Part shown: piece after piece, positions 823 to 58,393 of the stretch
How the letters are laid out: every line of letters begins with the position of its first letter
Numbering within the stretch: position 1 is the first letter of the stretch
Source: an uncultured Candidatus Saccharibacteria bacterium
GTDB lineage: Bacteria > Patescibacteriota > Saccharimonadia > Saccharimonadales > AWTP1-31
DNA length: 64,000 nucleotides
Assembly (NCBI GenBank): GCA_964629815.1
Contig: CAZVTA010000002.1
Coordinates: 2,096-66,095, forward strand
Direction: 5' to 3'
Notes under the pieces: model-generated
Seen by the model: only the letters and a program-made list of their open reading frames with translations
Told to the model about the DNA's origin: nothing
Databases searched by the model: none
Made by a program: the position numbers and the translations under genes

Positions 823-899
823 GTAGGGAAAAGAGAAGCCCGACAAATTTTCACACAAATTTGCCGGCGCGATGAGAAAAACCGTAGGTTTGTCTCATT
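823..899 (+). repeat. Structured two-hairpin repeat element, copy A (between tRNA-Ala and tRNA-Ile)
   Basis: Aligns with 57603-57683 through a shared core AAAGAG.AGCCCGA...CACAC...TTGCC(C)GGCGCGATGAGAAAA(A)CC...GGTT(T)GTCTCATT. Hairpin 1 is CAAATTT-TCACAC-AAATTTG. Hairpin 2 is ATGAGAAAAACC-GTA-GGTTTGTCTCAT. Confidence 0.6.
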
Positions 900-901
900 T
901 T

Positions 902-978
902 GGGCGATTAGCTCAGCTGGTTAGAGCGCGTCACTGATAATGACGAGGTCGGAGGTTCGAGTCCCTCATCGCCCACCA
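902..978 (+). tRNA. tRNA-Ile (anticodon GAT), CCA encoded
   Basis: GGGCGAT acceptor arm, anticodon arm CGTCA-CTGATAA-TGACG, T-arm GGTTCGAGTCC, ends ACCA. Confidence 0.97.
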
Positions 979-2417: not shown

Positions 2418-3915
<1,498 letters not shown>

Positions 3916-4042
3916 AAGAACTGATACTGTTTTACTTATAAAACTCAGTTTATGAACTGACGTTGATTTGCACTATTCAATTTTTAACGTTCATTTCCTT
4001 TAGAGACACTCTAAAACAGGCAATCCCAAAAGGTCTCCAGCC

Positions 4043-35315: not shown

Positions 35316-35350
35316 GGCCCGGTAGCTCAGCTGGATAGAGCGCCGCCGTC
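35316..35350 (+). repeat. Exact 35 nt duplicate of the tRNA-Arg 5' half
   Basis: GGCCCGGTAGCTCAGCTGGATAGAGCGCCGCCGTC is identical to 35439-35473. The copies diverge inside the anticodon loop. Confidence 0.85.
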
Positions 35351-35438
35351 AAATGACCCCACAAACCAATACCTAGCGCTAAGGTTTGCGGGGACCCCAA
35401 ATAGTTATATAATTACGCACATTCTTACATTACCGTTT

Positions 35439-35515
35439 GGCCCGGTAGCTCAGCTGGATAGAGCGCCGCCGTCCTAAGGCGGGCGTCGGGGGTTCGAATC
35501 CCTCCCGGGTCACCA
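35439..35515 (+). tRNA. tRNA-Arg (anticodon CCT), CCA encoded
   Basis: GGCCCGG acceptor arm, anticodon arm CCGCC-GTCCTAA-GGCGG, T-arm GGTTCGAATCC, ends CCGGGTCACCA. Confidence 0.93.
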
Positions 35516-35563: not shown

Positions 35564-36121
35564 TTACGCAAAGGTATGTTGTTCGTGTACTGTCGAATAA
35601 GAATGCAGTTCTTCTTTTTTGAACCACATAGCAATTTCTTTCTCTGCCTCGTCAACCGCCCCTGAAGCGTGAATAAGGTTTGCGGCACCCTTCTTTGCCA
35701 TCGATGCACGACCAAGACTCAAATGCGCATAATCACCACGAATAGTACCAGGTGCAGAATCTTTTGGCCCAGTACTGCCAACCATTTTACGCACAATCTC
35801 TACCGCATGGCCACCCTCGAGCACCGCAGCTATAACAGGGCCACTTCGCATAAACTCTCGGGTAGAATCTACGATCATACGGCCAATCTCTTCTGCAGAC
35901 TCAGTATACTCAACGCCATAAGCATCCCAGTCATTTTTGGTTTTTTGACCAACGATTGGGACAAGCGAGTCTGGGTAATGGTCTTCGAGTAGTTTTTGCT
36001 CGGGCACAAGCATCTTCATGCCAACAATTTTAAGACCTGCTTTTTCAAAGCGCGTCAGTATTTCGCCAACCAAACCACGTTGTACTGCGTCAGGTTTGAG
36101 AATTATAAGTGTTTGTTCCAT
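35564..36121 (-). CDS. ndk: Nucleoside diphosphate kinase (long form)
   Basis: 185 aa. MEQTLIILKPDAVQRGLVGEILTRFEKAGLKIVGMKM, IRGDY, and NLIHASG holding the active-site His. Confidence 0.9.
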   Translation of the reverse strand: MEQTLIILKPDAVQRGLVGEILTRFEKAGLKIVGMKMLVPEQKLLEDHYPDSLVPIVGQKTKNDWDAYGVEYTESAEEIGRMIVDSTREFMRSGPVIAAVLEGGHAVEIVRKMVGSTGPKDSAPGTIRGDYAHLSLGRASMAKKGAANLIHASGAVDEAEKEIAMWFKKEELHSYSTVHEQHTFA

Positions 36122-36194
36122 ATCTTCCTTTTCGTTACAGGCATATTATAACAGATACCGTTACAAGTATGTCCCCGTGTCGTACAATATAGAC

Positions 36195-37109
36195 ATGTTA
36201 CTAAGCAAACTCAAAAACGAATTTCTAGAACACATGGAGATCGAGCAAAACCGCTCGCAAAAAACCATAACCAACTACGACCACTACCTAACAAGACTTA
36301 TCGATTATGCAGGCGATATACCCGTTTCTGGTATAGATATCGAGTTAGTACGTAAATGGAGATTATGGCTCAACCGGCTCGGCACAAATGTGTCAGATGA
36401 GCTGCAAAAAACCACTCAAAATTATCATCTTATAGCACTGCGTAGTTTTTTAAAATATTGTGCCAAACGCGATATTAAAACGCTGTCGGCCGACAAAATA
36501 GAGTTGGCGCGCACAAAACGAAAAGAAGTTACCTTTTTAACCCCAGAAGAAATAGAACGATTATTTGACCAACCCGATACAAACACATCTGCCGGTATGC
36601 GAGACCGCGCCATTATGGAGCTGCTTTTTAGCAGTGGGCTGCGTGTTTCTGAGCTCGTAAACCTCAACCGCGACCACATCAACCTAAAGCGCCGTGAATT
36701 TACCGTACGAGGTAAAGGACAGAAAGACCGGCCGATATTCATAAGTACTGAAGCGGCCGAGTGGATAAAAAAATACCTCGACAGCCGAACAGATGTATCA
36801 CAGCCATTGTTTATACGTGTTGGAGGCAAAAAACAAGAAGATCGTAGCGGCAACTATGCACGACTTACCGCCCGAAGTATTCAGCGTATGGTAGCACGCT
36901 ACGCCTTGCTCGCAGGCATAACAAAACACGTCTCACCCCATACATTACGACATAGTTTTGCTACAGACCTGCTGATGAATGGAGCCGATATTCGCTCGGT
37001 ACAAGCAATGCTTGGTCACAGCAATATCGCCACTACGCAGATATACACACACGTTACCGACCCGCACCTAAAGGCCATCCACGAAAAGTTTCACCACCGC
37101 AAAGACTAG
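36195..37109 (+). CDS. Tyrosine recombinase, XerC/XerD family
   Basis: Start moved to MLLSKLKNEF; the ORF track start at 36018 would overlap ndk. TACAAT lies 6 nt upstream. Contains RDRAIMELLFSSGLRVSELV, HTLRHSFATDLL, and LGHSNIATTQIYTHV with the catalytic Tyr. Confidence 0.88.
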   Translation: MLLSKLKNEFLEHMEIEQNRSQKTITNYDHYLTRLIDYAGDIPVSGIDIELVRKWRLWLNRLGTNVSDELQKTTQNYHLIALRSFLKYCAKRDIKTLSADKIELARTKRKEVTFLTPEEIERLFDQPDTNTSAGMRDRAIMELLFSSGLRVSELVNLNRDHINLKRREFTVRGKGQKDRPIFISTEAAEWIKKYLDSRTDVSQPLFIRVGGKKQEDRSGNYARLTARSIQRMVARYALLAGITKHVSPHTLRHSFATDLLMNGADIRSVQAMLGHSNIATTQIYTHVTDPHLKAIHEKFHHRKD

Positions 37110-56528: not shown

Positions 56529-57602
56529 ATGAGTTTATCTATCGGTATAGTTGGGTTGCCTAATGTTGGCAAGTCTACCCTGTTTAACGCACTCACAGAT
56601 GCAGAAGCGTTGGCTGCGAATTATCCGTTTGCAACCATTGAACCAAACACCGGAATTGTACCCGTCCCCGATGCACGTTTGCATGCATTGGCCGAGCTAT
56701 ACCAATCGCAAAAAATAGTACCCGCCACCGTAACATTCGTAGATATCGCAGGGCTTGTTGCTGGCGCCAGCCAAGGCGAAGGCCTTGGTAACCAATTCTT
56801 AAGCCACATTCGCAGCACTAATGCCATCGTACATGTAGTACGCGCCTTTGATGACAATGATGTCGTGCACGTAGACACCGAACATAACCCCAAAAAAGAT
56901 ATCGAGACAATCAATACAGAGCTAATCTTGGCCGATATACAAACGCTTGAAAAACGATTACCAAAATTTGAAAAAGAAGTACGAGCTAACGCCAAGCTTA
57001 AACCAGTTCTCGATACATACCAAACTATACTAACCGCACTCAACGAAGGCAAACTCGTAAGCCAGCTCGACTACGAGCACGAGCATATTACCGACCTACA
57101 CCTTATTACCGCAAAACCCGTTATTTATGCATTTAACGTTGATGAAGCAGGACTCACCGACCACTCGAAGCAAAAAGAGCTGCAAGCACTTGTGGCGCCC
57201 GCCCAATGTGTATTTATTTGTGCCAAGCTCGAGAGTGAATTGCGCGGGCTCGATGAATCAGACCGCGTGGAACTATTGGAAAGCTATGGACAAACAGAAT
57301 CGGGCCTGGTGCAACTGATCGCCGCGGCATACGACACACTCGGACTACAAAGCTACCTTACTGCTGGCGAGCAAGAAATTCGCGCCTGGACAATACCTAA
57401 AGGCGCCACCGCCCCACAAGCTGCTGGCGTCATCCATGGCGACTTTGAAAAAGGCTTTATTGCAGCGCAAGTGGTTGACTATAATGACCTGATTGACGCT
57501 GGCTCTGAGCAAGCAGCAAAAGCTGCCGGCAAGGTTCGCACCGAAGGCAAAACATACACCATGCAACCGAACGACGTTGTCGAGTTTCGCTTTAACGTTT
57601 AA
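56529..57602 (+). CDS. ychF: Ribosome-binding ATPase YchF
   Basis: Start moved to MSLSIGIVGLPNVGKSTLFNALT (G1 motif). Also has DIAGLV and NVDE, plus a C-terminal TGS domain ending MQPNDVVEFRFNV. Confidence 0.93.
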   Translation: MSLSIGIVGLPNVGKSTLFNALTDAEALAANYPFATIEPNTGIVPVPDARLHALAELYQSQKIVPATVTFVDIAGLVAGASQGEGLGNQFLSHIRSTNAIVHVVRAFDDNDVVHVDTEHNPKKDIETINTELILADIQTLEKRLPKFEKEVRANAKLKPVLDTYQTILTALNEGKLVSQLDYEHEHITDLHLITAKPVIYAFNVDEAGLTDHSKQKELQALVAPAQCVFICAKLESELRGLDESDRVELLESYGQTESGLVQLIAAAYDTLGLQSYLTAGEQEIRAWTIPKGATAPQAAGVIHGDFEKGFIAAQVVDYNDLIDAGSEQAAKAAGKVRTEGKTYTMQPNDVVEFRFNV

Positions 57603-57683
57603 GTAGCTGGAAAGAGCAGCCCGAGCAAAAATCACACTTTTTGCCCGGCGCGATGAGAAAACCATTTTAATGGTTGTCTCATT
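57603..57683 (+). repeat. Structured two-hairpin repeat element, copy B (inserted after ychF)
   Basis: Aligns with 823-899. Hairpin 1 is GCAAAAA-TCACAC-TTTTTGC. Hairpin 2 is ATGAGAAAACC-ATTTTAAT-GGTTGTCTCAT. Confidence 0.6.
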
Positions 57684-57689
57684 ACTGTG

Positions 57690-57733
57690 CCATGCAACCA
57701 AACGACGTTGTCGAGTTTCGCTTTAATGTTTAG
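57690..57733 (+). repeat. Duplicate of the last 44 nt of ychF (displaced gene end)
   Basis: CCATGCAACCAAACGACGTTGTCGAGTTTCGCTTTAATGTTTAG versus 57559-57603 CCATGCAACCGAACGACGTTGTCGAGTTTCGCTTTAACGTTTAAG. There are two substitutions, both synonymous in the ychF frame, and the stop changes from TAA to TAG. Confidence 0.85.
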
Positions 57734-58393
57734 CTAGGCCGCTTGCCAGTTGTCGACAAGGTTTTGAATAGTTTGTATAACCGTTTCGTGCGACGGCATG
57801 CGGTTGTCTTCGTAATAATGGTCGGCACCCATGTAGTTGTCGACGGTCGACAAACAATACAGTTCGTCTGCAAGTAAGTGCATTTTATCGACAGCGCCAA
57901 TGTTGGCGACTGGCACTGCAATAACAATCTTTTTTACTTTTATAGACTTTAAATACAACTTGGCCGCTTCGAGCGAAAAGCCCTTGCCCAGACCATCTGC
58001 CACCAATATAACGACACGGCGCTTAACAAGGTCTCGACGAATAATTCCATGTCGACCCAACAACCGGTGCATAGCACTAAGCTTGTCGCGTTTGTCCTGT
58101 TCGAAAAACTGGTGATATTCCATATCGAATTCTTCTATCTGCCCTGGACTGTACGACGAGTTGTACGTATAGCCACCATCTTGGTTAATACTAGCCACTT
58201 CTTCCGGTTCACCAGGAGCGTTAATAGGCTCTGCCATAAGTAATGTCATGACACAGTGCAAACGCGCGGCAATTTGTGCGCCCACCACAACACCACCATC
58301 TGATAACGCTACCACGGCACATTTTTCTTTTTTATAATGTTCGAGTTTCTCGGCAAGAAGTTTGCCAGCCTCTACACGACTATTGAAGTACAT
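57734..58393 (-). CDS. Phosphoribosyltransferase-family protein
   Basis: 219 aa. PRPP-binding-type motif VVILVADGLGKGFSLEAA. The N-terminus is typical of the 'putative phosphoribosyl transferase' family. Confidence 0.7.
   Translation of the reverse strand: MYFNSRVEAGKLLAEKLEHYKKEKCAVVALSDGGVVVGAQIAARLHCVMTLLMAEPINAPGEPEEVASINQDGGYTYNSSYSPGQIEEFDMEYHQFFEQDKRDKLSAMHRLLGRHGIIRRDLVKRRVVILVADGLGKGFSLEAAKLYLKSIKVKKIVIAVPVANIGAVDKMHLLADELYCLSTVDNYMGADHYYEDNRMPSHETVIQTIQNLVDNWQAA

Follow-up and report, generated by a model that had tools for sequence, protein, structure and literature searches.

A folded ~80-nt element flanked by duplicated gene ends in Saccharibacteria

The end of ychF is present twice in a 64-kb stretch of DNA from an uncultured member of the Saccharibacteria (hereafter the window, that is, the whole of the 64,000 nt analysed), and the two copies, which stand on either side of a short insert, differ only at silent positions. 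This raises the question of what the insert is, which of the two copies belongs to the old gene and how both came to lie at one locus.

The ychF locus and its ancestral junction

The gene itself is intact: ychF occupies 56529..57602 on the forward strand and encodes the redox-regulated ATPase YchF (357 aa; PF01926/PF06071), which is 100% identical to P0001. Its working 3' end is the upstream, in-frame copy X1 (57559..57602, +), which reads CC + ATG CAA CCG AAC GAC GTT GTC GAG TTT CGC TTT AAC GTT TAA; the displaced and non-functional end X2 (57690..57733, +) has the same sequence with CCA, AAT and the stop codon TAG. The duplicated unit comprises the last 13 codons of ychF, the stop codon and the two preceding bases, 44 nt in all, and the three differences between the copies, at 57569/57700 (G/A), 57596/57727 (C/T) and 57602/57733 (A/G, in the stop codon), are all silent, the translation being MQPNDVVEFRFNV-stop for both X1 and X2. 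The earlier note had placed the first copy at 57559-57603 and had given 86 nt for the insert; the duplication was confirmed, with 57559-57602 recurring at 57690-57733 around an insert of 87 nt (57603-57689) that holds no open reading frame. Taken as a 48-nt direct repeat (57559-57606 and 57690-57737; 92% identical, 131 nt from start to start), it is exceeded in length by no other close-spaced repeat of the window, tRNA-derived repeats excepted, and the flanks of the locus reach a best ungapped score of 37 as compared to a mean of 7.3 and a 99th percentile of 11 for the mismatched-flank control.

As had been claimed, the insert holds copy B of a repeat element; the other copy lies at 824-898. 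This element is called E here, and the copy at ychF (copy B; 57609..57682, +) was recognized by a covariance model with 81.8 bits (E-value 3.5e-20). On the forward strand it consists of a purine tract (57609-57616), hairpin 1 (57619-57649) with the conserved base GCCCGA/CCGGC and a variable 7-bp top, the linker GCG and hairpin 2 (57653-57682; ATGAGA...TCTCAT). The filler at the left junction, GTAGCT (57603..57608, +), differs among family copies and includes a TAG that is found before the purine tract in most family members. The right tail TACTGTG (57683..57689, +) is comparable to the TAC(C/T) that directly follows TCTCAT in about 30 family members and to the TACTGT found immediately 5' of a tRNA at another locus (L044). 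A further match that had been noted between the bases flanking the two copies, AGCTGG and AGCTAGG, is ambiguous in that TAGG(G) is also the consensus 5' edge of the E family itself. The stop codon of X2 is touched by that of a convergent gene of the phosphoribosyltransferase family (57734..58393, -; 219 aa; PF00156, E-value 1.1e-9; stop read as CTA on the forward strand, 57734-57736), which shows synteny in relatives. Because X2 lies between E and this convergent gene and its reading frame is shut by a TAA within the loop of hairpin 2, it is most simply a dead copy, and no coupling role is apparent for it at this locus.

Which copy is the old one may be judged from the relatives, the nearest YchF homologues outside the source genome being 84% identical. 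On five relative contigs (L001-L005) the same convergent phosphoribosyltransferase gene adjoins ychF directly, the two being separated by 24 nt or overlapping by 4 nt, and neither the element nor the duplication is present at the 3' end of ychF. This comparison points clearly to an ancestral state in which the ychF stop stood against the phosphoribosyltransferase stop, and since ychF of the relatives directly abuts the convergent gene, X2 is the displaced native end, with 131 nt inserted. These 131 extra bases are one gene-end copy plus element E. The reading of the duplication as an insertion footprint was thereby borne out, X2 having kept the old junction. The comparison of ychF 3' ends that the earlier note had called for established the ancestral junction; it gives no verdict on the native synonymous variant, silent sites being saturated at 84% protein identity (the Pro codon is CCT or CCA and the Asn codon AAC in L001 and L005). 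An exact-protein look-up using YchF with two start choices and the phosphoribosyltransferase returned no close strain or second assembly of the locus, a search of a metagenome collection with a 26-nt repeat core gave no match, and no pair of an empty and a filled strain was found for it; among the E copies collected, none lies at the ychF 3' end of another genome. As a separate observation, one copy (L065) is located upstream of ychF instead of at its 3' end.

Element E in the window and across the group

Element E is an undescribed, folded and non-autonomous mobile element of ~80 nt that is found across Saccharibacteria. A family scan of one genome per species with the pattern CCGGCGCGATGAGA-N(8-30)-TCTCAT detected at least 119 loci. 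The rest of E is also present upstream in 106 of the matches listed, which gives ~105 true E copies; the E loci among the matches listed come from Saccharibacteria assemblies in nearly all cases, and the strict pattern occurs there 1-4 times per genome. Its parts follow one another in the order purine tract, hairpin 1, CCGGCGCGAUGAGA, hairpin 2 and UCUCAU, or, written out as DNA, (TAG)GGGAAAAGAG, CAGCCCGA, a 7-bp stem with loop and stem, CCGGCGCGATGAGA, a further stem with loop and stem, and TCTCAT. At a length of ~75-85 nt the unit is sharply bounded, its ends GGGAAAAGAG ... TCTCAT being constant in more than 100 copies, and an invariant core of ~25 nt is common to the copies of the whole group. 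On its 3' side there is often TAC(C) or a mini-hairpin of the GCGAAGC type.

The fold is strongly supported by covariation. In an alignment of 103 copies, 95.9% of the cells in the two hairpins are paired, at ten base pairs both partners have changed in a compensatory manner in dozens of sequences, and the covariation score is 0.398 as compared to 0.102 in shuffles (reached by 0 of 500) and at most 0.13 in slid registers. The folding of copy B stands out from shuffled sequences with z=-4.4 as RNA and z=-4.6 as DNA. Over the 64-kb window the covariance model detected exactly two copies, A and B, and the 17-mer CCGGCGCGATGAGAAAA occurs twice where 0.10 occurrences are expected. Copy A (824..898, +; 83.8 bits) is without flanking duplication; it lies between tRNA-Ala (727-803) and tRNA-Ile (902-978), ending 3 nt before the latter, and differs from copy B in both hairpin tops by compensatory changes. 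The same position is occupied by an E copy at locus L117, and in the family E precedes tRNA genes by 3-11 nt, in 34 cases on one strand and in 3 on the other, and stands immediately 5' of one third of the tRNA genes next to it.

The earlier note regarded the insert as either a remnant or a non-autonomous hitch-hiker. The former description was not upheld, the insert being a complete unit of a family whose members have sharp boundaries and a length of ~75-85 nt, while a tiny, non-autonomous element without an open reading frame is indeed what was found. The search for an integrase joined to the element, likewise proposed in that note, detected no tyrosine recombinase within ~4 kb of ~105 copies: the XerD query (an approximate sequence), run by tblastn over 974 kb, matched only the window at 36216-37100 and one further locus (L015), neither of which is near any E copy. 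The sole tyrosine recombinase of the window (36018-37109, PF00589) is 20 kb from the ychF locus and looks like a Xer-type housekeeping enzyme. No larger or integrase-bearing version of E was found, nor a circular or free form or a helper enzyme. Rfam 15 at the gathering threshold showed no family at copy A or copy B, and the best permissive match to copy B scored 20.5 bits against a cut-off of 45 bits, on the opposite strand. The motif strings of E gave no match in the indexed literature, in which no paper on such Saccharibacteria repeats was found, and the three pattern matches in a viral contig collection are all without the rest of the E core.

Several other functions were considered for E and rejected. 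A promoter does not agree with the variable spacing of the conserved blocks and with the lack of a -10/-35 match, and an intrinsic terminator on the forward strand does not agree with the lack of a T-run after either hairpin. On the reverse strand, where hairpin 1 is followed by GCUGCUCUUU, a terminator is doubtful, as tpiA, msrA and lepA need read-through elsewhere. Hammerhead or other small ribozymes, an idea derived from the GAUGAGA motif, misfit the core, and the Rfam models gave no match.

With respect to mobility, 55 pairs of copies from different loci share at least 93% identity across the element, variable tops included, and the flanks are unrelated in nearly all of the best 40 of these 55 pairs. 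Similarity between near-identical copies begins at the purine tract and stops at TCTCAT. The best pair, with 98.6% identity, consists of a copy upstream of a tRNA (L012) and a copy after a gene of 484 aa (L037). Moreover, the site upstream of tRNA-Arg(GCG), tpiA, msrA and an alaS-like gene carry different E types in different species. Because near-identical copies stand at unrelated loci in different species, these comparisons show that E is mobile between unrelated loci and genomes. Since the sites reached, as in L012 and L037, have no gene-end segment in common, an insertion step that is independent of homology must exist.

Gene-end duplicates and their silent divergence

When 150 nt on each side of 102 E copies were compared, using mismatched flank pairs as control, duplicated gene termini were found around ~16-20 of the 102, with 20 scoring above the 99th percentile of the control, and the architecture X-E-X is present in more than 15 independent assemblies. 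Fully identical duplicates were seen at the 3' end of the 484-aa gene (L037, 50/50 nt), at the 3' end of the alaS-like gene in two species (L035, 48/48 nt; L051, 15/15 nt) and at the 5' end of msrA (L042, 44/44 nt); at L078 the msrA 5' end is duplicated over 29 nt and has diverged. Further duplicates concern the 5' ends of tpiA (L019, 37 nt; L036, 30 nt) and of a nifS-like gene (L024, 31 nt) as well as the 3' end of a 482-aa gene (L053, 41 nt), which at L023 carries an X-E-X-E-X array with two E types. At L089 the overlap of the rmlB stop and the rmlC start is duplicated over ~26 nt and both genes are whole, and the boundary of lepA is also among the sites with flanking gene-end duplicates.

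The geometry of these duplicates is uniform in some respects and variable in others. The repeats abut E on both sides, and in every example locus one copy is continuous with the intact gene and the other with the DNA that had adjoined the gene before. In the cases checked, at least 12 in number, the outer edge of the duplicate lies no more than 3 nt from a start or stop codon, and at L107 it lies at tRNA position +1; at non-coding sites, at most 2 of ~60 E copies have a flanking repeat. The duplicates measure 15-50 nt, mostly 26-50 nt, and the filler varies at both junctions of E. Comparing the inner edges of 11 duplicates gave unrelated sequences with no common crossover core, which makes a site-specific crossover core unlikely. 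Across the loci compared, duplication of the terminal 15-50 nt around E thus appears firmly as a recurrent trait of the family.

At the 5' ends of genes the duplicates have an additional property. In seven cases (L009, L019, L036, L042, L078, L024 and L068) the gene whose 5' end E adjoins lies on the strand opposite to the element, and in all seven a start codon is still present in the displaced copy, closely preceded in several of them by a -10-like box. From the displaced copy an open reading frame runs through the entire antisense element, again in 7/7, and ends on or just past the real start codon of the gene, as ATGA, GTGA, TTGA or TAATG or two codons in (7/7). By its sequence this is the layout of translational coupling, which would explain how a leaderless gene survives the insertion of an 80-nt structured element in front of it.

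The earlier note had concluded from the silent differences at ychF that both copies evolved as coding ends. At that locus taken by itself the evidence is thin, three differences that are all silent having P=0.033 under random placement; family-wide the claim held. In 12 duplicate pairs pooled, codon position 3 accounts for 40 of 53 differences (one third expected; binomial p=4e-10), and the differing codons comprise 34 silent and 12 replacement changes, the latter mostly conservative. At L043 a gene ending in HFDDKFLANKGIDY-stop is present in three copies, one on the gene, one between a small element P and E, and one after E, so that E was inserted beside a dead copy. Relative to the attached copy, the detached ones carry 6 and 5 differences (stop codon included), all silent, and between these two (X1 against X2) there are 10 differences, all silent and all transitions. 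Neutral decay of dead copies cannot give this pattern, which argues for an origin in the working ends of different lineages. Furthermore, the lepA relic at L068 has TCC where the working copy has AGT at one aligned serine position, a switch of serine codon family that would be the mark of long divergence under protein-level constraint. As the differences are mostly silent, both duplicate copies would descend from working gene ends of different lineages, a conclusion for which the silent divergence is weak evidence at ychF alone and strong evidence across the family.

Origin of the duplicates and relation to known elements

For the way in which the copies came together, we tentatively favour, with somewhat less than even confidence, integration via gene-end homology combined with exchange between lineages, in preference to target-site duplication. 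The ychF locus would then have received a 131-bp insertion exactly at the ychF/phosphoribosyltransferase boundary, made up of the last 44 nt of ychF and the ~80-nt E. The gene-end segment would travel with E and integration would occur by homologous pairing in that segment, either through a Campbell-type single crossover of a small circle or through overlapping-arm ('duplication-insertion') recombination. Ordinary recombination, probably following natural transformation, would spread E-bearing alleles from lineage to lineage, and in a naive lineage the incoming copy would become the working end and the resident end would become X2. Because no recombinase travels with E, host functions would act in trans. 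Integration by homology explains the outer edges at the gene boundary, the L023 arrays and the foreign-looking alleles; with mostly 26-50 nt, the duplicates are about as long as the minimum homology for recombination and do not agree with a fixed transposase stagger, and the insertion beside a dead copy at L043 agrees with integration guided by homology and not with selection for gene function. Against this stand the occurrence of E at sites without a shared gene-end segment (L012 versus L037) and the fact that the cleanest duplicates are identical (L037, 50/50; L035, 48/48; L042, 44/44), which fits target-site duplication.

Target-site duplication is a possible, less probable route, in which E enters a long and variable staggered break, handled by a transposase, a retroelement or repair, and fill-in gives identical copies of 15-50 nt. 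Later recombination would overwrite either copy with a working allele and so produce the silent bias; the exchange points could lie within the conserved core of E or within the block that E-less donors have in common with X2 and the DNA downstream of it. Identical duplicates at those insertions that look the most recent, the arrival of E at unrelated sites, the variable filler at both junctions and the lack of a recombinase in cis all agree with it. However, an obligatory duplication predicts many flanking repeats at non-coding sites, where at most 2 of ~60 copies have one, and a random stagger does not predict an outer edge within 3 nt of a start or stop in at least 12 cases. A stagger of 15-50 nt would, moreover, be without transposase precedent, as we know of no transposase whose stagger lengths span this range inside one family, and at L043 the two copies flanking E, both dead, have 10 differences that are all silent. 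The two routes nevertheless have much in common. Identical duplicates fit duplication at the time of insertion followed by recombination between lineages equally well, recombination after insertion could yield the same silent pattern as a repeat copy of foreign origin, and the homology-independent step needed in either model could itself create the duplication. In both, X2 at ychF is the resident end and the ychF-E junction the newcomer, and both involve exchange between lineages, which is plausible because Saccharibacteria are a naturally competent group.

The remaining explanations carry less weight. Template switching, in which the hairpins stall the polymerase and the nascent strand copies E elsewhere and re-anneals upstream with no dedicated enzyme, would make use of the strong structure of E (z=-4.4, -4.6) and allow for variable duplicate length and junction filler and for the failure to find an enzyme; we consider it improbable in view of the sharp, constant ends of E in more than 100 copies, its group-wide conserved core and its placement 3-11 nt 5' of tRNA genes, where one strand is preferred by 34 to 3, and it leaves the silent-only divergence unexplained. 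That the locus is the deletion remnant of a large integrative element, a prophage or island with a ychF end borne on its attP, recalls the classic attL/attR picture of gene-end direct repeats around foreign DNA, and the window does encode a tyrosine recombinase (36018-37109), but independent deletions are not expected to leave one same complete unit of ~75-85 nt with the same boundaries in more than 100 copies; with the three viral-contig matches lacking the rest of the E core and no adjacent integrase, this origin is very unlikely. An assembly artefact, a mis-join or local mis-assembly that mimics a duplication, would be open to checking by a second assembly of the ychF locus, of which none was found for comparison; given that X1 and X2 differ at three positions, that more than 15 assemblies, produced by different projects and assemblers, show this architecture and that a 44-nt repeat with its copies 131 nt apart is below typical final k-mers and reads, an artefact is extremely unlikely. 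Finally, a gene 3' end, a hairpin-rich spacer and a near-identical second copy resemble the pair of variable repeat and downstream template repeat in diversity-generating retroelements, a reading with hardly any credibility that was dropped on the substitution pattern: the changes are G/A, C/T and A/G and not adenine-specific, L043 X1 and X2 differ by transitions alone, the repeat has just 44 nt, and changes that are all silent are the opposite of diversification.

Replacement of a gene end by an integrating element is known from e14 and phage 21 in icd and from Rac at the 5' end of ttcA (PMC6379469 and, in the part available, PMC7192596). Like these elements and the islands that target tRNA genes, the E insert is flanked by direct repeats of a gene terminus and the gene is intact; the displaced native end persists as a pseudo-fragment beside E, and the copies flanking E diverge silently, as e14/Rac-type ends do by silent or conservative changes. 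Unlike E, which has ~80 nt and no gene, e14/Rac-type elements are kilobases long, have their own integrase and a defined crossover core, whereas E has no shared core at the repeat edges and is also found at duplication-free sites. At ychF, terminus repeats and an intact gene were found and an adjacent recombinase was not, nor was a fixed core found among the 11 duplicates compared. Judged by the same outcome, namely an intact gene, a displaced end and silent divergence, E would be a variant of the known replacement-end elements. CIMEs are att-flanked, integrase-less derivatives of integrative elements, kilobases long and with identifiable parents; E resembles them in being non-autonomous, bounded by attL/attR-like repeats and reliant on functions in trans, and differs in having no known parent and in being conserved and structured as a unit instead of left over from a deletion.

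Among small repeats, MITEs, REP/REPIN, Correia and RPE elements are described, in the parts available of PMC3184786 and PMC2229807, as short, multi-copy, structured, intergenic and non-coding, all of which applies to E. Unlike them, E has no terminal inverted repeats, two internal hairpins alone being found and its ends (GGAAAGAG... and ...TCTCAT) not being complementary; its flanking duplicates have 15-50 nt, are absent at most sites and show no short fixed length, and it is of low copy number (1-4 strict matches per genome, among the matches listed) with an invariant core of ~25 nt. MIRU-type repeats, intergenic tandem minisatellites, contain small open reading frames that overlap the ends of neighbouring genes. 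The open reading frame through upstream-sited E, with its stop overlapping the gene start in 7/7 cases, is similar to this, but it begins within the duplicated 5' end of the gene and runs antisense to the element.

Taken all together, it is possible, if short of probable, that E represents a class of very small mobile elements that had gone unrecognised. On this reading E is a folded nucleic acid of ~80 nt without a gene, with two covarying hairpins and a purine tract that mirrors hairpin 2 and suggests a triple helix; it would insert precisely where transcription or translation units begin or end, and the host gene would survive because its terminus is duplicated. In insertions at 5' ends, the displaced copy would become a leaderless, translationally coupled upstream open reading frame, and a second family, P, would behave alike at tRNA genes, E and P nesting in each other. 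If true, selfish DNA would have in this a new mode of life in genomes almost without intergenic space. The genomes of Saccharibacteria are tiny and tightly packed, with little room for mobile DNA, and the pattern of E is one of colonisation of packed genomes without killing genes, through duplication of the gene terminus that is entered. The duplicate pairs hold gene-end alleles of different lineages side by side and may be a direct record of inter-lineage recombination in an uncultured group. Furthermore, E has a strongly covarying, conserved structure that is new to Rfam and, as it immediately precedes one in three of the tRNA genes beside it, may have a role at the level of RNA or of single-stranded DNA.

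A second hairpin element at tRNA-Arg(CCT)

The duplication of a gene segment around a small element was found at a further gene of the window, tRNA-Arg(CCT) (locus at 35316-35515), whose first 35 nt occur as exact duplicates at 35316-35350 and 35439-35473. The insert of 88 nt between the two 5' copies contains a promoter-like stretch and a hairpin at 35357-35393 (CCCCACAAA...TTTGCGGGG), here termed P, which differs from the hairpins of E, the mobile two-hairpin element family of Saccharibacteria. The architecture is like that of ychF, the end of which is duplicated around E copy B; however, the intact gene is to the right of the insert at tRNA-Arg(CCT) and to its left at ychF. Another Saccharibacteria genome (L015, 3008-3160, minus strand) has this 5' half of tRNA-Arg as well, with a P hairpin after it at the position observed in the window. 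The complete tRNA-Arg(CCT) that follows P in L015 is quite different in sequence, as if it were an imported replacement gene.

The tRNA-Arg/P locus and the gene for the sole tyrosine recombinase of the window (36018-37109, plus strand; PF00589 with a SAM-like N-domain, 31% identical to an XerD query) are about 0.5 kb apart, with ndk between them. A tyrosine recombinase is also encoded within about 0.8 kb of the corresponding locus in L015, on the opposite side as compared to the window.

Nested and tandem elements

Both kinds of element were found combined at single loci. In L043 (7560-7960, minus strand), one gene end is present three times and its downstream spacer twice, nested around one P and one E, and every difference between the coding copies of the gene end is silent. 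Upstream of tRNA-Met in L107 (4700-4960), the first segment is a relic of 15 nt from the 5' end of the tRNA, after which come an inverted P, an E interrupted by a second P and, lastly, the intact tRNA gene. Since this second P sits in the hairpin-1 loop of E, the small elements insert into each other. An array with two types of E was found at the 3' end of a single gene in L023 (1-330), where the duplicated gene-end segment X and E alternate in tandem (X-E-X-E-X); the last 10 codons are present in three alleles, with differences that are either silent or conservative.

Placement and structure of E

Among the matches listed, a same-strand tRNA gene begins 3-11 nt after the end of E in 34 of 106 copies (L006-L124), as exemplified by the junction of E copy A and its tRNA in the window (893-902). 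These genes represent 20 different tRNA species, and only three of the 106 copies have an opposite-strand tRNA at that position. One E copy is located directly 5' of the 16S rRNA start (L118). Moreover, two sense-oriented copies with the same hairpin sequences lie within a ribosomal protein operon in L014, one between L23 and L2 and the other between S17 and L14 (3205-3294 and 6337-6426). Where E precedes a gene, the duplicated gene start opens an ORF that crosses the antisense E, the stop of this ORF overlapping the real start codon as ATGA, GTGA, TTGA or TAATG, or lying two codons in (seven of seven cases: L009, L019, L036, L042, L078, L024 and L068).

In about 20 E copies among the matches listed (e.g., L009, L011, L030, L053, L067 and L118), TCTCAT is followed by the right tail (A/G)AG(G)CGAAGC(C)G. 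This tail includes GCGAAGC, an unusually stable DNA mini-hairpin, and the duplicated segment, or 16S, begins immediately 3' of a tail of this type. Furthermore, the alignment of the E family (A2) revealed that in hairpin 2 the 5' arm (GAGAAAAACC) is mirrored by the 5' purine tract (e.g., GGGAAAAGAG), a match that was reached in 0 of 5000 shuffles. Tract and arm covary across the family, GGGGAGAG occurring together with GAGAGGGG; in copy B they are located at 57609-57616 and 57655-57664, respectively. This mirror symmetry of purine tracts suggests that E may form a triple helix.

Transcription units in the window

The 16S rRNA gene (2419-3917) and the start of the 23S rRNA gene (1-303), both on the minus strand, are about 2.1 kb apart, and the tRNA-Ala and tRNA-Ile genes between them are encoded on the opposite strand with promoter-like and terminator-like sequences of their own, so judging from this arrangement the rRNA genes do not appear to form one operon. 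Hairpin 1 of E copy B (57621-57648), followed by GCUGCUCUUU on the minus strand, was scored as terminator-like on that strand. The ancestral layout had no space for a terminator behind the phosphoribosyltransferase gene, and hairpin 1 could provide the end of the phosphoribosyltransferase transcript.
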